A DNA stretch of 29,991 bases from a virus (Duplodnaviria; Caudoviricetes): the IMG/VR virus record IMGVR_UViG_3300033407_000091, positions 1-29,991 of that record; one strand, written 5' to 3'. Shown one piece after another: positions 4,469 to 16,674 of the stretch. Under the pieces are notes generated by a model, which worked only from the letters and a program-made list of their open reading frames with translations, searched no databases and had not been told where the DNA came from. Made by a program: the position numbers and the translations under genes. Within the stretch, counting starts at the first letter, position 1, and each line of letters starts with the position of its first letter.

Positions 4469-4893
4469 GCGATTTAATTGACAATATCAGCGACTTTATC
4501 GGCGAAATAGACGGCATGATGCCGAAAGGCAATCATACGCTCGATCTGGCAAACAACATGGAGTATGCCGAGACGGTCCACAATAAACGAGGGCTGTATC
4601 TCTTTAACGACGCCAAGCTTCGCGAGGGGGTCGTTAAGTGGCTGAAAGAGGTTATCCAGGCCGACTTGCCGCTGAACGACAGAAATATAGTCTTGGCGCT
4701 GGATGGAGTTCGGTACGAGTATATCGGGCATCTACAATCCCTCACGGCCAAGATGCGACCGCCCGTGAAGGCTGGAGAGGGGCCACGCAAAACTCACCCA
4801 GGCGGCTGGAGTGACGTCAGTGGTCAATTGGCGAATGCATTCCAAAGCAAGATCGATGGGAAAGGATCAGTAAATCATGAATACGACGGCTAA
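4465..4893 (+). CDS. Hypothetical protein, possibly HK97 gp10-like neck protein
   Basis: ATG 4465 overlaps the upstream TGA (ATGA). Motifs NNMEYAETVH and WSDVSGQLANAF resemble gp10-like motifs. Confidence 0.45.
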   Translation: MSDLIDNISDFIGEIDGMMPKGNHTLDLANNMEYAETVHNKRGLYLFNDAKLREGVVKWLKEVIQADLPLNDRNIVLALDGVRYEYIGHLQSLTAKMRPPVKAGEGPRKTHPGGWSDVSGQLANAFQSKIDGKGSVNHEYDG

Positions 4894-5609
4894 TGCCTGC
4901 TATTAATAAGTGCACTTTGTGTGGAGACGAGTACGAAACTCAGCGGAGTAGGGCCGCAAAGAGCAAGTACTGTTCTCGACGGTGTCGAGACGAGTCGTAC
5001 CGAAAGGGTCGACACAAACCATGTGCTCAGTGCGGCAAGAAGTTCTACGTAAAGCCCGCCCTAGAGAGGGTGCGGTTTTGCTCGACAACATGTTACCACA
5101 AGAGCATGGAAGAACAGTTCGAAAAGACGTGCAAGCATTGCGGTACGGACTTCACCGTCGAGCGGTGCCGCAAGGATGAGGCGGTGTACTGCTCATGGGA
5201 TTGCGCGATGGAGGCGCAGCAACGTCCGCGCGACGAACTGGGCAATCTGCGCTGCTCTTCCTGTAAGGAGTATATGCCGCCAGATGAGTTTCACAACAGT
5301 TCGTTCACGCTAGATGGGTTTAGCCTCCGGTGCAAGGAGTGCTCACGGCATAGGTGGAATGCCAGGCGTGCAGTAATGGCGGACACAGATATCGATCCCG
5401 GATTCCTGCGACAACTCAGACACGAGGGCCAGGGGAATCTATGTGCCTATTGCGCCACCTGTCTGGATGACGTGACTCCTCATCTAGACCATAAGCAGCC
5501 TATCTCGAAAGGCGGTACCCACACACGCGACAACGTTCAGTGGCTTTGCTCCGTATGCAATGTCGCAAAGCGTGATACGCCGCATGACGAAACGATGCTA
5601 GCAGCTTGA
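4893..5609 (+). CDS. HNH endonuclease with multiple N-terminal CxxC zinc ribbons
   Basis: Repeated CxxC...(Y/F)CSxxC modules. C-terminal CAYC...HLDHKQPISKGGTHTRDNVQWLCSVCN is a canonical HNH. Confidence 0.9.
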   Translation: MPAINKCTLCGDEYETQRSRAAKSKYCSRRCRDESYRKGRHKPCAQCGKKFYVKPALERVRFCSTTCYHKSMEEQFEKTCKHCGTDFTVERCRKDEAVYCSWDCAMEAQQRPRDELGNLRCSSCKEYMPPDEFHNSSFTLDGFSLRCKECSRHRWNARRAVMADTDIDPGFLRQLRHEGQGNLCAYCATCLDDVTPHLDHKQPISKGGTHTRDNVQWLCSVCNVAKRDTPHDETMLAA

Positions 5610-7371: not shown

Positions 7372-7553
7372 ACGAGTACCACGTGATGCCCGCTTTCGAT
7401 AGGCCTGGCTGGGCTGTCCGACGAACTGGCGCCCGTCGTGCCACGAAGATCCATCCCGAGAAACAGGATGCAATAGAGGATGCGAAACGGCGCGGGGATG
7501 TGGTGTACGTTCACCGAAAAGACGGGATGGTAGAGAACAGAATCGAGAGATGA
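7368..7553 (+). CDS. DUF2188-like small protein
   Basis: YHVMP...GWAVRRTGARRAT...KQDAIEDAK...VYVHRKDG pattern matches my recollection of DUF2188. Confidence 0.75.
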   Translation: MNEYHVMPAFDRPGWAVRRTGARRATKIHPEKQDAIEDAKRRGDVVYVHRKDGMVENRIER

Positions 7554-8035
7554 TCCACAGTCCCGAATACCTCGAATCCAAGTACGAAACCCGCGATCCG
7601 TGGGGCTACCGCATCCATCCCGACGATATCGAGCGGAAGCGGCGGATCCTTGCGGTCATTGAAGAACTAGTGACGACGCATACTTTTCAGCGCGCGCTTG
7701 ATATCGGAGCCGGGGAAGGCTGGATCACGGCAGAACTGCCGGCCGAAGAGATCGAAGCGATTGAGATCAGCGACAACGCCGCTTCGCGCTTCCCGGACCA
7801 CGTTCGGCGCGTCAATGCCCCTACGGGTCACTATAGCCTCATTCTCGCCACCGGGATTCTCTATGCGCACTACAATGTTGATCTCTTCCATCACTGGATT
7901 AGACGCCACGCTTCCGGCCTGGTGGTCACGTGCAATCTTGCCGATAGCGAAGTGCCGCTAGATGCGGAAACTATCTATGAGGAGCGGTTTCCGTATCGGG
8001 ATAGGGTGCAACATCTCGCAGTCTATACGCCTTGA
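7550..8035 (+). CDS. Class I SAM-dependent methyltransferase (NodS-like)
   Basis: SAM motif ALDIGAGEG; N-terminal Y...DPWGY...ERK as in NodS-type methyltransferases. Confidence 0.8.
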   Translation: MIHSPEYLESKYETRDPWGYRIHPDDIERKRRILAVIEELVTTHTFQRALDIGAGEGWITAELPAEEIEAIEISDNAASRFPDHVRRVNAPTGHYSLILATGILYAHYNVDLFHHWIRRHASGLVVTCNLADSEVPLDAETIYEERFPYRDRVQHLAVYTP

Positions 8036-8511
8036 TCCTACTTCATTCCATAGCTCCCGAAAAACCAACCTCGAATTACAACACGAGGGCGGAAGTAATG
8101 TCGTCGACCGGCCCGCTCTCCTTCGACGGCGTGTACCGGAACGTCTTCGAGAACCGGGACGCGCTGAAGGGCAGAGAAGGAATAGCGTTCGTCATTGGAA
8201 ACGTCGTCGGCAAAGACAACTCGTTCGATACGGGCCAACCTCACGAGACGTTTTGCACGTGGGAAGAACTGGTCGAGCTCGGCCTTGAAATCGGCTGGCA
8301 CACGTGGACGCATCCTGATTTACGTGCGCTGTCCGATTCGGATTTAGAGAGCGAAGTCACGCCGCCGTATCACATGCGGCATTTCGCCTATCCGTACGGG
8401 AAGTTTGACAACAGAGTAATCGATGCCGTGAAGGACGCGGGGTTCGAATACGCATGGACGGCAGGCGGGGGAGATGATTCGCAGTATCAGAGACGGAGGT
8501 GGCACATTTGA
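8032..8511 (+). CDS. Polysaccharide deacetylase (NodB/CE4-like)
   Basis: LSFDG, EIGWHTWTHPDL and FAYPYG motifs. Confidence 0.85.
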   Translation: MILLHSIAPEKPTSNYNTRAEVMSSTGPLSFDGVYRNVFENRDALKGREGIAFVIGNVVGKDNSFDTGQPHETFCTWEELVELGLEIGWHTWTHPDLRALSDSDLESEVTPPYHMRHFAYPYGKFDNRVIDAVKDAGFEYAWTAGGGDDSQYQRRRWHI

Positions 8512-9158
8512 AATACCTCGTAGCCGTCACTCCGATTTGGCGCCGTCCCGCCCTAACCACGCAGTACATCCGTCAGATGCAGCGATGGAAGGATCGCGCC
8601 CGAAACTTCTCCCTGCTTTTGGTAGGCAGCGAACGCAAGCGGTCGAAGGCGCTCGCAGTTCCAGGCACGTGGTACATCGAGCACCGAAATAAACCTCTCG
8701 GCAAGAAATTCAACGCCGGCATCAGAAAGGCTCTCGAAATGGGCGCCGATTACGTCCTGATCATGGGCAGCGACCAGTTCGCGGACGTGTCGATGCTGGA
8801 TAAATACATCGAACTGATGGAAGAGGACGTTCCGTACGCCGGTGTGCTGGATACGTACGTGCTGGACGGCACGAGGGCGCTGTACTGGAAAGGCTACAGC
8901 GATGAACGCAAGGGCATGCCCGTTGGACCGGGGCGGCTCATTCGAAGGGACGTAATCGAGTCGATAGGCGATCTGTACGCCAACGGTCTCAGCCGGAATC
9001 TCGACGGTAGCGCGGATGCGAAACTGCCCGATCCGGTCGTGTTCTCGGGCAAGCCGTACCGGTTCGTCTCGGTGAAAACCGGAGAGTCGATCACGCCTGC
9101 GCGGCGGTATAAGGGGCGGGCCGTAAAGGCGTCACTGTTTCAGGATTTCTTTGAGTGA
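8508..9158 (+). CDS. GT-A fold glycosyltransferase-like protein (paralog 1)
   Basis: TTG start overlapping the upstream stop, with GGAGGT RBS. Has VTPIWRR, KFNAG and ADYVLIMGSDQF (DxD-like region). Confidence 0.7.
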   Translation: MKYLVAVTPIWRRPALTTQYIRQMQRWKDRARNFSLLLVGSERKRSKALAVPGTWYIEHRNKPLGKKFNAGIRKALEMGADYVLIMGSDQFADVSMLDKYIELMEEDVPYAGVLDTYVLDGTRALYWKGYSDERKGMPVGPGRLIRRDVIESIGDLYANGLSRNLDGSADAKLPDPVVFSGKPYRFVSVKTGESITPARRYKGRAVKASLFQDFFE

Positions 9159-9775
9159 CTGCGTCTAAAAACATATTGGTAGTTGCCCCACATTGCGATG
9201 ACGCCGAGCTCGGCTCCGGCGGCACTATCGCCCGATACGTCGAGGAAGGCCACAGCGTCCACGTCGTCGCGCTGTCGGACTGCCGGGACTCCATCCCTGC
9301 GGGCTTACCATCCGACGTACTGAGAGGCGAAGCACGGGCCGCAGGGAGCGTATTAGGAGCAACCGTCGCGGTGTATGACTTCGCCGTACGGACGTTTCCC
9401 GAGAAAAGACAGGACATCCTCGATTACCTGCACATGCTCGGGACGACGATCAAGCCGGATCTCGTTATCTGCCCGGCGCCGTCTGACTTCCACCAGGATC
9501 ATTTGACGGTATCGCTCGAATGCTTGCGCGCGTTCAAGTGCTCTATATGGGCAACCGTACTCCCCTGGAACACCCTTCGCTCGAACGTGAACGGCTTCGT
9601 CAGACTTGAGGAAAGGCACATTGAAAAGAAGGTCGAGGCATTGAGCAAGTACGCGAGCCAATCGCACCGGGCTTACATGGACCCGGTGACGGTGATTTCG
9701 TGGGCGCGGACGGACGGGCTGCAATGCGGGGCGAAATACGCTGAGAAATTCGAGGTCTTGAGGGAGATCAACTGA
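9155..9775 (+). CDS. PIG-L/LmbE family N-acetyl-sugar deacetylase
   Basis: VVAPHCDDAELGSGG, DFHQDH, KYASQ and AEKFEV motifs. Confidence 0.9.
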   Translation: MTASKNILVVAPHCDDAELGSGGTIARYVEEGHSVHVVALSDCRDSIPAGLPSDVLRGEARAAGSVLGATVAVYDFAVRTFPEKRQDILDYLHMLGTTIKPDLVICPAPSDFHQDHLTVSLECLRAFKCSIWATVLPWNTLRSNVNGFVRLEERHIEKKVEALSKYASQSHRAYMDPVTVISWARTDGLQCGAKYAEKFEVLREIN

Positions 9776-10086
9776 TGGCGAAAGTTCGAATTATGACTAC
9801 CCAAGGCACGGGCGAGAAAAGCGCCTGGTTCTGGTGCCCCGGATGTAAGGGATATCACCGGATTCCATTTGAAAATGGGCCGGTCACATGGGATTTCAAC
9901 GGCGACGTTGACGCGCCCACGATCAGCCCCTCGATACTCACGGACGGACACCGCCCTGAGCGCCGCTGTCACAGCTTTGTCCGGAGCGGCAAGATCCAAT
10001 TTCTCAACGACTGCGGGCATGAGTTGGCAGGCCAGACCGTCGAGTTACCTGAATGGAACGTTGAAAACGAGTCGTTTATAAACTGA
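9775..10086 (+). CDS. DUF6527-like Cys/His metal-binding protein
   Basis: FWCPGC...WDFNGD...PTISPSIL...CHSFVRSGKIQFLNDCGHELAGQTVELP pattern. Confidence 0.7.
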   Translation: MAKVRIMTTQGTGEKSAWFWCPGCKGYHRIPFENGPVTWDFNGDVDAPTISPSILTDGHRPERRCHSFVRSGKIQFLNDCGHELAGQTVELPEWNVENESFIN

Positions 10087-11141
10087 TGCGAGTATTACTG
10101 ACCGGCATCGGCGCGCCCGGCACCCCCGGAACCGTCCACTGTCTCCGCAATGGAGGCCCCGTCCGAATCATCGGATGCGATGCCGATCCGGACCCCGACA
10201 ACGCGCACCTCGTGGACGCCGTGTATCACGTGCCGAGACCGGACAACCCGGAATACCTCGATGAGATCGCTTCGATCTGTATTTGGGAATCCGTCGACGT
10301 CGTTCTCCCCCAAACCACAGCAGAAGTCGAGTTTCTATCCAGAACGAAGCATCAGCGACATTTGCTCGACGCGGGAGCAAGGGTAGCTTGCGCGAACGGG
10401 CACGCGGTAAAAGGGGCGAACGATAAGGCGCACGTGATGGAGGCGTTCGCGGCGATCGGGTTGCCGTCGCCCGAGTTTTTGATTATCTCAGATCGGCAAT
10501 GGCTGTATGAGGCAAAAGATCGTTTCGGGCTGCCATTCGTGATCAAGCCAAGGTCGTCGAATGGGAGTCGGGGGGTTCGGATTGTTCGGGACGACAACTG
10601 GATCGTGGATCATTTTCTCACCGACAAACCCGATGGCCTGAGCACGACGATGACGGCCATGTCTTTGATATTGGCCGCAATGGAGTCAGATGAAGGAGGG
10701 GCTCCCGAGCTGATCGCCATGGAGTTTTTGCCCGGCGATGAATTCTCCGTCGACGTATTCCGAGGCCTTCACGCACAAGCCGCCGTCCCGAGACTGCGAA
10801 AGAAGATGCGAGGCGGAATCTGCACGCACGCGGTTGTTGAGATGCGACAGGACTTGATCAACTACTCACTGAAGGCCGCGAAACATCTTGCGCTCACGGG
10901 CGCATTCGGGTTTCAGTATCGGCTTGATGGGGACGGCGTGCCGAAGGTGATCGAGTGCAATCCACGCGTGCAGGGTACGATGTGCGCCTCGTATTACGCC
11001 GGGCTGAACGCGCCGTGGCTTGCCGTCCGAGAGGCGATGATGGACCATCCGACTGAAATCAATCTGATAGACGGAAATATCGAATTCCGCAGGTGCTGGA
11101 GTGGAGTTGGGTTCGTCGACGAGGTGGCCGAATGCGTATAG
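10086..11141 (+). CDS. ATP-grasp domain protein
   Basis: NDK, PFVIKPRSSNGSRG, MEFLPGDEFSVD and IECNPR motifs, plus a Rossmann-like N-terminus (VLLTGIGAP). Confidence 0.9.
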   Translation: MRVLLTGIGAPGTPGTVHCLRNGGPVRIIGCDADPDPDNAHLVDAVYHVPRPDNPEYLDEIASICIWESVDVVLPQTTAEVEFLSRTKHQRHLLDAGARVACANGHAVKGANDKAHVMEAFAAIGLPSPEFLIISDRQWLYEAKDRFGLPFVIKPRSSNGSRGVRIVRDDNWIVDHFLTDKPDGLSTTMTAMSLILAAMESDEGGAPELIAMEFLPGDEFSVDVFRGLHAQAAVPRLRKKMRGGICTHAVVEMRQDLINYSLKAAKHLALTGAFGFQYRLDGDGVPKVIECNPRVQGTMCASYYAGLNAPWLAVREAMMDHPTEINLIDGNIEFRRCWSGVGFVDEVAECV

Positions 11142-11860
11142 GGCTCCTGACGTGCTGCTGGGCCGACGACGACCCCCCACGAGGCCGACTCGCGGAAATA
11201 GTTCTTCGTCATAATGGCGCAATCCGCGTTCCCGGCGTGGAGCTCGTCAGAGTCGCCGTGTACAGCCGTGAGGACAAACATATTTCCCCGGCCCTAGCCG
11301 TTCCGGGATGGACGTATCAGCAGTTTCCGAATCGCCCACTATCGGACAAATGGGACGCCGGCGCGAAGCTGCTCAGAACGAAGAACGTCGACGCCATGAT
11401 GATATTCGGCTCCGACGATTTCCTGAATGCGGAGTATATCGAAGCCGCTGCGGATGCCCTTCGAAAAGGCGCAAAGTACGCCATGCCAAAAAGCCTGTAT
11501 TTCTTCGACGCGAAGGAAAAGAAGGCGATGTACTGCCCGGTGATCGGAAGAGTGGGGGGAGGCCGGGCGCTGTCTAGGAATCTACTCGACAGGATGCACT
11601 GGGAGCCGTGGGAAAGGGGCTACCAGAGAAACATTGACGGCTGCATGGACCGGAGATTGATCGACATAGGCCACAAGCATCCCGACGCCACGATTGACGA
11701 CATACGATCCCTAAGCGCTCTGATTCTCGGGATTAAGACAGGCGGTAACCTTCACTCGTTCGACAAGATGCGCCGTGGATTGCAGGGCGAGCCTGTCGAT
11801 TCGGGGGCGCTTTTGGAAAGGTACGTGCCGGAGTATTCTGAGGAATTGCTCAATTGGTAA
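11132..11860 (+). CDS. GT-A fold glycosyltransferase-like protein (paralog 2)
   Basis: ATG 11132 after a GAGGTG RBS. Motifs NRPLSDKWDAG and VDAMMIFGSDDF are colinear with the 8508..9158 protein. Confidence 0.65.
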   Translation: MRIGLLTCCWADDDPPRGRLAEIVLRHNGAIRVPGVELVRVAVYSREDKHISPALAVPGWTYQQFPNRPLSDKWDAGAKLLRTKNVDAMMIFGSDDFLNAEYIEAAADALRKGAKYAMPKSLYFFDAKEKKAMYCPVIGRVGGGRALSRNLLDRMHWEPWERGYQRNIDGCMDRRLIDIGHKHPDATIDDIRSLSALILGIKTGGNLHSFDKMRRGLQGEPVDSGALLERYVPEYSEELLNW

Positions 11861-12092: not shown

Positions 12093-12121
12093 TTGAAAGT
12101 GTAGCGCATCCCGGCTATATT
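12093..12121 (+). promoter_or_regulatory. Sigma70-like promoter upstream of the RAMP-like gene
   Basis: TTGAAA (12093-12098), 17 nt spacer, TATATT (12116-12121). The same GGTTGAAA...TATATTG frame recurs at 13990-14022. Confidence 0.65.
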
Positions 12122-12160: not shown

Positions 12161-12829
12161 ATGGAAACGGTAGCAGTAAACGGCAAGTCTCATGCGGATC
12201 AGCTCCTGACGATCCCGCCGCCGAATTTCAAGGTGGCGCTCTTCACGGTTCGTGGTGATGCCCCGCTCGTGATGAACAAGTTCTCGGCGAAAGCCCGCGA
12301 GCAGATGAGGCAGAAACAGGAGGCCGGGTCGACGGGGAAGAAGGGCACGAAGCGGGAAGCGAAGGATTTCAATCTTGCCTATGAGCAGGCCATCCATCGT
12401 TCACGCGAGGGGTGGGTAGGTATTCCGGCCGGCGCGGTCAGGTCTTCTATGATTTCCGCCTGCAAGATCGTCGGGTTTCACATGACGAAGGGCAAGCTTG
12501 CCGTATTCATCCAGGCCGATGGATTCGAGGTGACGGACGGGACGCCGCTTATCAAGATCACGAAGGGCGAACCGCATTATCACGAGTCGTTGGTCCGGAA
12601 CGCCACGGGCGTGGCTGACATTCGCCCGCGCGCGATGTTTGACGAAGGATGGGAGGCGGATGTCCGTGTGAAATTCGACGCCGATATGTTCACCCTCGAA
12701 GACGTGGCGAACCTGCTTGTTCGGGCCGGGGCTCAGGTTGGTCTGCTCGAAGGTCGTCACGATTCGAGCAAGTCGTGCGGGCAGGGCTGGGGTACGTTCG
12801 AGGTGGTCGAAAGGAAGGAGGGCACATGA
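12161..12829 (+). CDS. Stand-alone Cas7/RAMP-like protein (Vipr-like), 222 aa
   Basis: RAMP-type motifs: first strand VRGDAPLVMN, GIPAGAVRSSMISA (cf. the IPGSSLKG motif) and C-terminal Gly-rich loop GAQVGLLEGR...GQGWGTFEV. ATG 12161 follows the promoter. Confidence 0.75.
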   Translation: METVAVNGKSHADQLLTIPPPNFKVALFTVRGDAPLVMNKFSAKAREQMRQKQEAGSTGKKGTKREAKDFNLAYEQAIHRSREGWVGIPAGAVRSSMISACKIVGFHMTKGKLAVFIQADGFEVTDGTPLIKITKGEPHYHESLVRNATGVADIRPRAMFDEGWEADVRVKFDADMFTLEDVANLLVRAGAQVGLLEGRHDSSKSCGQGWGTFEVVERKEGT

Positions 12830-13275
12830 GACGATCCGAAGTCTTATCCATACTGGAGGAAATGCGTGTCGAAAATGGCGGCACGCTTCCTCCTGAAATG
12901 GTGCTTGAGCGGGCGACACCCGTAAGCCATCCACTTCACGAGTGCTTTGAGTGGGATGATTCGAAGGCATCCCATGAGTATCGGCTGTGGCAGGCGCGGC
13001 AGCTCATCCGCGTTTCGGTCTCGGTGGTTCACCCTGAATTATCCCCCACGCGGACGTACGTTAGTCTTGTGGGGGATCGGCGCAACGGCACGGGGTACAG
13101 GAGCACCGTTGACTGTGCCCGAGATCCTGTACTCCGGGAACAGATGCTTGACGAGGCCCTCCGATATATGCAGGTTTTCGAGCGGAAGTATGGAATATTG
13201 TCGGAGCTTGCGACTGTTTTTACGGAGGTGAAAAGAGTGCGCCGATCTCGGAAGCGGGAGGGCGTTACAGCCTGA
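12826..13275 (+). CDS. Accessory protein coupled to the RAMP-like gene, 149 aa
   Basis: ATGA overlap with the RAMP stop and AAGGAGG RBS. Contains the motif HPLHECFEWDDSKASHEYRLWQARQLIR. The array starts 5 nt after its stop. Confidence 0.75.
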   Translation: MRRSEVLSILEEMRVENGGTLPPEMVLERATPVSHPLHECFEWDDSKASHEYRLWQARQLIRVSVSVVHPELSPTRTYVSLVGDRRNGTGYRSTVDCARDPVLREQMLDEALRYMQVFERKYGILSELATVFTEVKRVRRSRKREGVTA

Positions 13276-13280
13276 ATTGT

Positions 13281-13666
13281 GGCAGATGCGGTGTGACCAG
13301 GCGCGGTATGGTAAGGCCAGGTACGGCAGATGAGGCGAGGCCTGGTAAGGTACGGCATGATCGGGCAAGTTGAGGTATGGCAGATGCGGCTAGGCTCGGT
13401 GTGTTAGGCTCTGGTCTGGTAAGACTCGTTGCGGTTGGGCGTGGTACGGCAGATTTGGTGAGGCAAGCCCTGGTCGGTTTTGGTCTGTTCGGGTGGGGTG
13501 CGTTAAGTTACGGCAGGTTTGTTGTGGTGAGTCTTGGTATCGTGAGGTCGGGTTAGGTGAGGTACGGCAGATGAGGCAAGGTATGGCGCGGCAAGATGCG
13601 GCAAGGCGTGGCCGGGCGAGGTCTGGCATGGCACAGTAAGGTATAGTAGGACACGGCACGGCAGGC
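13281..13666 (+). ncRNA. GGY-NN pentamer guide-like array 1 (6 units)
   Basis: GGCA delimiters at 13281, 13325, 13379, 13448, 13512, 13566 and 13660. The units between them hold exactly 8, 10, 13, 12, 10 and 18 in-phase pentamers. No credible ORF. Confidence 0.8.
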
Positions 13667-13681
13667 AAAAAGACAACACGA

Positions 13682-13846
13682 ATGAAAAAGACTCCAACGA
13701 GCTTCAGGCTTTCAGACGATGCTCGCGACCTTTTACAGCAGCTATCCGAGAAAACCGGCATAAGCCAGGTAGCGGTACTCGAGATATTGATAAGGGAGAA
13801 GGCGAAGAAAGACGGGCTTACTGTGAGGCGTGATCCGCCAAGGTAA
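13682..13846 (+). CDS. Ribbon-helix-helix (CopG/Arc-like) DNA-binding protein, 54 aa; not in the ORF track
   Basis: Hand translation: MKKTPTSFRLSDDARDLLQQLSEKTGISQVAVLEILIREKAKKDGLTVRRDPPR*. TSFRL ribbon, helix, G-turn, helix. Confidence 0.8.
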   Translation: MKKTPTSFRLSDDARDLLQQLSEKTGISQVAVLEILIREKAKKDGLTVRRDPPR

Positions 13847-13862
13847 GTCTATGGTGAGATAC

Positions 13863-13989
13863 GGCAGGCAAGGTGCGGCCAGGCAAGGTCTGGCAAGGCG
13901 AGGTGTGGTGGGGCGAGGTGCGATAAGGTACGGCAGATATGGTGCGACCAGGTGTGTTTGGGTGTGCTTGGGTGTGATAGGGCATGGCA
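13863..13989 (+). ncRNA. GGY-NN pentamer guide-like array 2 (2 units, preceded by a degenerate unit at 13827-13862)
   Basis: GGCA delimiters at 13863, 13932 and 13986 enclose 13 and 10 in-phase pentamers. Confidence 0.8.
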
Positions 13990-13991
13990 GG

Positions 13992-14021
13992 TTGAAACAT
14001 TACCTGTTTCGGTGGTATATT
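13992..14021 (+). promoter_or_regulatory. Sigma70-like promoter with extended -10
   Basis: TTGAAA (13992-13997), 18 nt spacer, TGn-TATATT (14013-14021). Confidence 0.55.
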
Positions 14022-14111
14022 GATATAGAATAACGCCGCTTGCGTGGCGGGGTCGGCTCCGAACCCTATAATTCGGGCAACGATTACATCGCATTAGCGA
14101 AACCGCACTGT

Positions 14112-14160
14112 AGAAGGGCGGCATTTTCCTTAACCGGAAGATGCTGCCCTTTTTCTATTT
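14112..14160 (+). terminator. Intrinsic terminator-like hairpin
   Basis: 16-bp stem AAGGGCGGCATTTTCC / GGAAGATGCTGCCCTT (two G-U pairs), 6-nt loop, T-rich tail. Confidence 0.7.
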
Positions 14161-15600: not shown

Positions 15601-16674
15601 ATGGCCTTGAACTGGCTTGAAGAAATCCAGGAGGTCAGCTCGACGGGACTTACGGTGCAGGCACAGGCACTCAGTCTCGATCAGATTGACCCGAACCAGA
15701 TGCTCCAGCATCCGGTCTTTTTCCCTTATGCGGACGTTCCGTCCGTCAACCTACAGCAAATCTTCGAGACCGACTACCGCCCTACGGCGGATCGGCGTGA
15801 ATGGGATGCTCCCGGCCGGTTCATTCCGACCGTGCTCCCCGAGATCGAAAAGCTCCAGATGGTCCCGATCGAGTCGAACGACAAGATCGGAGAAGAGGAG
15901 ATGCAGGCGATCGAAGAGCAGGCGATGGGTAACGACGAGGTGTACAAGCGCCTCGCTACCGTTTCCATCCCAGGACGAGTGGACAAGCTTGTGGGGGCGA
16001 ACTTCCGCCGCGCCGAACTCGACGCCATCGAGGCGTGGACGAAGGGCACGATCACGGCGAAGAACCCGACGAAGGGCGGAAACGCTCAGGTGTTCTCGCT
16101 CGGGTTCGCTGTAGGTCGTCTCCAGACGGCAGGTACGGCGTGGAATGACGGCGGCACCAACGCTTTCAACGATCTCATGTCGTGGATCGAAGACGGCGAG
16201 GCCGAAATGGGTCCGATCATCGCCGTGAAGCTCCGCCGCGCGACGTTCAACGCGATCCAGACCGACGCGCCGAACATCCTCGACTACGGCGGCAACTCCA
16301 TCAAGCCGTCGCCGGGTCAGGTGTCGGCTCGGGTTGCCGACATGCTCGGGCACGCCTTCCGCTTCATCATCAGCGAGGAGCGGGTCGACGTGTTTGATGA
16401 TGGAGGCACAGCCTACACGCGTACGGCCGCATGGCCCGCTCAGTACGTTGCGGCCATCCCGCAGTCGGGTGTCATCGGCCAGACGGCGCGGGCTCCTGTG
16501 GTGCGAGCCATCGAACTGGCCCGAGGCGCTCCCGAGGCCGGAATTGACGTGCGCGGACAGACCGTGTACTACAATTTCAAAAACAACGGCCGCACGGCGG
16601 TGATCGAGTGTCAGTGCAACTGGCTCTCCCTCCCGCAAGAACGGAATGTCTGGACCATCGACGCCGGGGTGTAA
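15601..16674 (+). CDS. Major capsid protein (lambda E-like)
   Basis: 357 aa, GAGGT RBS, REWDAP motif; synteny with scaffold and decoration genes. Confidence 0.8.
   Translation: MALNWLEEIQEVSSTGLTVQAQALSLDQIDPNQMLQHPVFFPYADVPSVNLQQIFETDYRPTADRREWDAPGRFIPTVLPEIEKLQMVPIESNDKIGEEEMQAIEEQAMGNDEVYKRLATVSIPGRVDKLVGANFRRAELDAIEAWTKGTITAKNPTKGGNAQVFSLGFAVGRLQTAGTAWNDGGTNAFNDLMSWIEDGEAEMGPIIAVKLRRATFNAIQTDAPNILDYGGNSIKPSPGQVSARVADMLGHAFRFIISEERVDVFDDGGTAYTRTAAWPAQYVAAIPQSGVIGQTARAPVVRAIELARGAPEAGIDVRGQTVYYNFKNNGRTAVIECQCNWLSLPQERNVWTIDAGV

Follow-up and report, generated by a model that had tools for sequence, protein, structure and literature searches.

A probable staggered VIPR array in a virus genome, with a conserved four-base GGCA step as candidate guide boundary

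VIPR systems are made up of a vipr gene, a vap gene and vrRNAs of 9-16 GGY/NN repeats, which read their DNA targets with one skipped base, usually the wobble base (bioRxiv 10.64898/2026.04.26.720920). In the staggered arrays of the same preprint the vrRNAs overlap by one base. Small RNA sequencing confirmed the ribozyme and single-RNA layouts, not the staggered one, while the wording of the legend to Fig. S18 mentions processed vrRNAs, and replacement of GGY by GAY in phage SUSP1 abolished silencing (10.64898/2026.04.26.720920). According to another preprint, the filament has one Vipr protomer on each repeat, and purines are kept out of position 3 by a pocket in the protein (10.64898/2026.04.26.720927). 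SUSP1 Vipr is described to grip G-G-Y and to offer NN to double-stranded DNA, every third target base being skipped, and this binding represses transcription (10.64898/2026.04.26.720920, 10.64898/2026.04.26.720927). VIPR silencing of a satellite is described in a third preprint, where the words 'staggered', 'processing' and 'GGCA' are absent from the main text (10.64898/2026.10.15.759431), and non-canonical triplets are reported in a fourth (10.64898/2026.10.21.760802). No further literature on VIPR was found beyond these four preprints. The GGY/NN grammar and the array with one-base overlap are thus already in a 2026 preprint; GGCA has no match in its text, legends or supplement text, and its figure images or data files may show it (10.64898/2026.04.26.720920).

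The window, i.e. the whole stretch of 29,991 bases analysed here, is a complete virus record that encodes terminase, portal, scaffold and major head proteins. Its VIPR cassette has a block of modification-type enzymes on one side and the scaffold gene on the other, and the parts of the cassette listed below are all on the plus strand. A promoter-like site upstream of vipr (12093..12121; TTGAAA, 17 nt, TATATT) is a consensus match only, two such sites having been found against 1.6 expected. The vipr gene (12161..12829) encodes a stand-alone RAMP of 222 aa with a Cas7/Csm3-like fold, and its stop is overlapped by the start of a vap-type accessory gene (12826..13275; 149 aa, PHROG 15946). Array A (13281..13666) and array B (13863..13989) follow, with a ribbon-helix-helix (RHH) gene between them (13682..13846; 54 aa; Pfam RHH_3 at E 1e-4, above the cut-off). 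The array is interrupted by this gene, the last codons of which fit the pentamer grammar (13682-13862). Since tblastn found no homologue of it in 89 related loci, the RHH gene does not belong to the conserved components of the system, and it may have been inserted recently or serve as a local regulator. Directly after array B, a second promoter-like site with the same hexamers TTGAAA/TATATT (13992..14021) faces a stretch of 120 nt that might represent a small RNA and that ends at a terminator-like hairpin (14112..14153; 18 pairs, T tail), the likely end of the cassette transcript. The modification-type block (7550-11860), between the head genes and the VIPR cassette, carries methyltransferase, polysaccharide deacetylase, PIG-L deacetylase, DUF6527 and ATP-grasp genes together with two possible glycosyltransferase-like ORFs that have no Pfam match. 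An HNH endonuclease with Cys-rich repeats (4893-5609) is present among the head genes. No cas family was detected among the 20 window proteins scanned, nor was any CRISPR-type array (invariant repeat with unique contiguous spacers) found in the window.

Parsing of arrays A and B yielded 94 pentamers in eight complete units, of 8, 10, 13, 12, 10 and 18 pentamers in array A and 13 and 10 in array B. Position 3 is C or T in all 94, position 1 is G in 91 and the triplet is GGY in 64; an earlier note on this DNA had arrived at the same figures by hand, and each of them was reproduced, as was its unit span of 44-94 nt with GGCA included. The coordinates 13281..13666 it had given for the arrays hold for array A but not for array B, which lies at 13863-13989. 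Information content at positions 1 to 5 was 1.77, 0.74, 1.06, 0.14 and 0.07 bits, respectively, and the longest strict GNY run in 13281-13666 was 14, compared to at most 8 in 2000 shuffles. Positions 4-5 had been thought to vary freely. Their information is low indeed, but 67 of the 94 pentamers have A or G at position 4 and none has CC at positions 4-5, so that NN is nearly, not wholly, free. Counting the junction pentamer, the window's units have 9-14 repeats, and one has 19.

All boundaries of the eight complete units are 4-nt steps, with nothing between the units. There are ten GGCA steps: those opening the six units of array A start at 13281, 13325, 13379, 13448, 13512 and 13566, with a closing GGCA at 13660, and those opening the two units of array B at 13863 and 13932, with a closing GGCA at 13986. 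GGCA and the next G form a full pentamer, the last base of which doubles as the first base of the next unit. When all slip sizes were charged alike by the parser, a degenerate ninth unit was also obtained (13827..13862, plus strand; 7 repeats, one 6-nt step), sharing bases with the 3' end of the RHH gene. AC or AT, claimed earlier to precede GGCA always, does so at nine of the ten steps here, the opening step at 13281 being preceded by GT, and the GGT of the proposed consensus GGT-AY-GGCA is found in five of nine junctions and not in the remainder. GGCA does mark the phase break at all ten steps, but it also opens 13 in-phase pentamers, three of them after AC or AT (13354, 13630, 13655); the boundary mark is therefore GGCA followed by G, and not AY-GGCA alone. 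Minus-strand ORFs cross the arrays at 13390-13761 and 13849-14124. The predicted fold of array A was no more stable than that of shuffles (z +1.25), and a search of the arrays against Rfam up to E 1 gave no match, hammerhead ribozymes included.

The 222-aa ORF did not match Pfam, and had 1109 relatives among 1408 candidates. With 116 of 120 listed relatives as input, its structure was predicted at pLDDT 90. Foldseek with this model returned 110 matches at E <= 0.001, the top rows all being type III/VII CRISPR RAMPs and the best ones Csm3-type chains (E 2e-6). The wide VIA search gave Z 12.1 with a Cmr subunit (rmsd 3.3, 154 aligned) and Z 11.6 with Csm3, Csm3/Cmr matches lying at Z 10-12, and RAMPs filled its first 33 rows. 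A Vipr structure was not found in the PDB, and there is none among the Foldseek and VIA matches listed. PHROG 4652 is common to the window's Vipr (E 9e-14) and SUSP1 Vipr (E 1e-96), and the only match of the Vipr profile in phage SUSP1 was a 195-aa ORF flanked by GGY/NN tracts. Residues H17 and K33 of this ORF agree with the numbering of the structure paper; its thumb R138 and G-loop R179 align with the clade-invariant R157 and R199, and D177 with E197. Compared directly, the two Vipr proteins are remote (hhalign probability 77%, 46 columns). K68, Y74 and H79 are near-invariant in the clade of the window's Vipr, SUSP1 Vipr having no His in the alignment, and these three residues may resemble a Cas6 triad.

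A vap homologue was present in 83 of 89 vipr loci. The window's vap and SUSP1 vap1 fall in different PHROGs (15946 vs 5926) and gave no BLASTP alignment, a difference that holds at the sequence level only; a vap model made from the single sequence reached pLDDT 49, and the Atlas listed unnamed viral clusters only. The locus thus has a stand-alone RAMP, vipr with one vap, adjacent GGY/NN tracts and carriage by a phage, the features by which VIPR is defined, and we are almost certain that it is a VIPR system.

We compared the step in 89 related viral loci, to which a second search contributed the best 80 of 481. Arrays were found in 86 of them, beside vipr and without exception on its strand; by exact sequence, 160 arrays were distinct. 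With a parser that set an equal charge for every slip size, 495 phase slips were recorded: 482 of 4 nt, spread over 76 loci, 7 of 6 nt, 3 of 3 nt and 3 of 1 nt. GGCA accounted for 334 of the 482 4-nt steps, and xGCA for 390 of 482 as compared to 1273 of 5409 in-phase repeats. Among 470 distinct junctions, position 3 was C in 93% and position 4 was A in 84%; the related loci are not independent, and close relatives inflate all of these counts. The spacing between steps was 8-12 pentamers in 235 of 357 intervals. Only 151 of the 470 distinct junctions were preceded by AC or AT, which makes that preference of the window a local habit and not a general signal. GGCAG was also read in phase 157 times, vs 332 times as a step; hence, a boundary does not follow from the motif by itself. 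The same steps occur in the cultured actinophages Donkeykong and UmaThurman and in the assembled cyanophage Cy-LDV1, the hosts of the cultured phages with these junctions being Mycobacterium smegmatis and Gordonia terrae. GenBank calls two such GGCA-step arrays hypothetical proteins (L209:1489-1875, Donkeykong gp48; L211:1650-1973, UmaThurman gp40). Nine orthologous unit pairs showed 18 changes at positions 1-3 and 21 at positions 4-5. The number of units varies widely among the loci. Two units, at approximately L066:826-881 and L069:3827-3882, have eight 5' pentamers in common and differ only in the last three NN, a pattern that suggests exchange of unit ends.

The published target code was checked by comparing the NN strings of the related and the window's own units with 2.46 million unmasked bases of VIPR-bearing phage DNA, comprising the related loci and 100 fetched stretches with overlaps counted twice. 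At a threshold of at least 9 consecutive matched pairs, set after preliminary counts had been seen, 6 of 363 guides had a match at skip 1, whereas no guide had one at skip 0 or skip 2; when a GGY filter was applied, a match at skip 1 was obtained for 5 of 342. Out of 200 order shuffles, 178 had no match and the maximum was 2. The 17 matches at skip 3 were without exception the guides' own unmasked arrays. Of the six matches at skip 1, five are in ORFs, on the sense strand, and have the skipped base at the wobble position. ATPase genes, identified by eye from a Walker A motif, account for three of them, the vap gene of two other VIPR phages for one and a 430-aa unknown (PHROG 7858) for one. The one-base-skip target code holds for the guides of this clade. 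The L012 guide has 10 consecutive pairs with the ATPase gene of L011, two of the codons concerned being different in the copy that L012 itself carries. In L011, L012, L015, L031 and L150, several guides converge on the phage ATPase gene that adjoins the array in siblings. The L037 unit ending at 1382 matches the vap genes at L027:4838 and L033:5115 with 10 and 11 consecutive pairs, a case, as read from the matched sequences, of VIPR apparently directed against VIPR within the clade. As the closing AG pair was mismatched in all three terminal units that included it, the junction pentamer seems to belong to the scaffold and not to the guide; at the pair preceding the step, both matches and mismatches occurred. 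This test covered seven of the eight units of the window, none of which had a match. A guide of L048 (ending at 2190) has 8 consecutive pairs, 9/15 overall, with the window's major head gene near 16050, a weak match, as runs of 8 pairs also occur in shuffles.

Targets of the window's own guides were sought in nine exact-match scans of sequence collections with units 2-7, and nothing was found above chance. With 18 specified bases, where chance would give about 0.7-3 matches per 1e11 sites (collection size estimated), viral contigs gave one match for unit 6, one for unit 3, six loci for unit 2, two matches each for units 4 and 5 and three for unit 7. These were rejected as targets, as none extended convincingly, the best short cases reaching 19/20 bases (units 2 and 5). 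Units 6 and 4 had no match in metagenome contigs at 20 bases. Unit 7 had one match in genome contigs at 22 bases, at L100:4001-4038 of a Bacteroidetes MAG, in frame in a chromosomal galactokinase-like ORF (read by eye), with 23 of 26 bases matched (23 of the first 24); it would satisfy the published 80% rule, and the expectation is 0.08 by phage DNA statistics or about 0.3 by a rough codon estimate. No link between the MAG and the window's phage was seen (best E 0.46), and the target was found in none of 200 other genomes of the MAG's order, where the reversed control matched one. We therefore consider this match to be probably due to chance. Unit 3 had no match in the 89 VIPR phage records with 3 mismatches allowed, and there is no self-target in the window, the best being 19/26 at skip 1. 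The rivals of this phage are probably absent from the collections or differ at a few positions, and such targets would be missed by exact scans.

How the array is used can be proposed from these data. Family membership, the step in 76 of 89 related loci and the target test at the level of the clade bear out the earlier note's view of the units as guides: each unit is most likely a guide RNA of its own, bounded by the GGCA step. In the account that we favour and regard as likely to be right as a whole, this is a staggered VIPR array whose RNA is cut near GGCA into eight guides. The array would be transcribed together with vipr and vap, its RNA is predicted to be cut near each four-base step, and with the eight resulting guides Vipr would be led to genes of rival phages and silence them. 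The purine-excluding pocket accounts for the 94 pyrimidines at position 3. Since a filament in 5-nt register cannot pass a 4-nt step, GGCA(G) would end one Vipr filament and start the next; and since there is no 3' tail or ribozyme between units, the step is the only boundary mark and a likely cut site. Cutting at the junction is what we infer from this arrangement, and the cutter could be Vipr itself or a host RNase. A more specific version takes the GGCA step as a tail-less maturation signal, at which the break in register exposes one bond that Vipr cuts. One small protein would then be both a Cas6-like nuclease and a Cas7-like backbone, with K68, Y74 and H79 as candidate catalytic residues; we put this forward tentatively and think it rather unlikely.

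The array RNA may instead stay uncut and carry several filaments like beads, with GGCA only resetting the register and the guides acting independently. A junction that has no hairpin, tail or ribozyme (z +1.25; no Rfam match to E 1) would suit such a system, and confirmation by small RNA sequencing covers ribozyme arrays and single vrRNAs only (10.64898/2026.04.26.720920); however, the legend of Fig. S18 has processed vrRNAs (10.64898/2026.04.26.720920), and the specificity of the step (C in 93% and A in 84% of 470) goes beyond what a register reset needs, which makes uncut RNA improbable in our judgement. It is very improbable that the step serves at the DNA level only, as a scar or crossover point for gain, loss and exchange of units with no role in RNA. 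The variable unit number, the L066/L069 units and the RHH gene interrupting the window's array agree with such a role, but homologous exchange between GGY/NN tracts keeps phase and needs no 4-nt step, and the peak of step spacing at 8-12 pentamers (235/357) corresponds to the length of a single guide. A decaying pentanucleotide microsatellite or a low-complexity coding stretch, to which the minus-strand ORFs across the arrays and the GenBank hypothetical proteins over the arrays of Donkeykong and UmaThurman might point, is scarcely credible. Variation is restricted to fixed positions, 482 of 495 slips in relatives are of one size and the arrays are always on the vipr strand beside vipr, in keeping with the earlier rejection of a decaying microsatellite; moreover, real coding sequence is recovered from the NN strings at skip 1 alone.

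Beyond this one locus, the boundary of the staggered array has kept its sequence, GGCA followed by G, throughout a large phage clade, whose guides follow the one-base-skip code and are directed at siblings (ATPase genes, the vap of another system). If the step is a cut site, back-to-back guides with a four-base separator would make a very compact multiplex repressor. A self-cutting Vipr, if true, would be what one expects in a forerunner of CRISPR whose RAMPs had not yet become specialised. The presence of the junctions in cultured Mycobacterium and Gordonia phages makes cutting testable.

Comparison with known systems places the locus closest to VIPR. It resembles Class 1 CRISPR-Cas, with its Cas7/Csm3 backbone and Cas6 processing, in a RAMP fold that polymerises on a guide and in having several guides per array, but has no invariant repeat with unique contiguous spacers and no cas gene among the 20 window proteins scanned, and the pairing of VIPR is gapped, unlike that of Class 1. 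In ribozyme-interspersed VIPR, hammerhead ribozymes lie between the guides, whereas the window has no room for them and no Rfam match. With type II VIPR (Escherichia phage SUSP1, Pseudomonas fulva prophage) it shares PHROG 4652, GGY/NN and the one-base-skip code. The type II guides of SUSP1 are, however, separate, each with a structured 3' tail, whereas the window's units abut and form no stable fold; the four tracts of SUSP1 have no 4-nt step, whereas the window has one at each boundary, and SUSP1 vap1 belongs to PHROG 5926, the window's vap to another family at the sequence level. Compared with published staggered VIPR, GAT/GTT triplets are more numerous in the window, and AC/AT precedes its step as a local trait; with only 64 of 94 triplets GGY, and given the loss of silencing with GAY in SUSP1, part of the units may act weakly, or the clade may tolerate more variation. 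Staggered VIPR (Fig. S18) and the window's locus have in common a phage-borne vipr and vap, GGY/NN pentamers, units of similar repeat number and overlap of the units by one base, and in both the end of one unit marks the start of the next.
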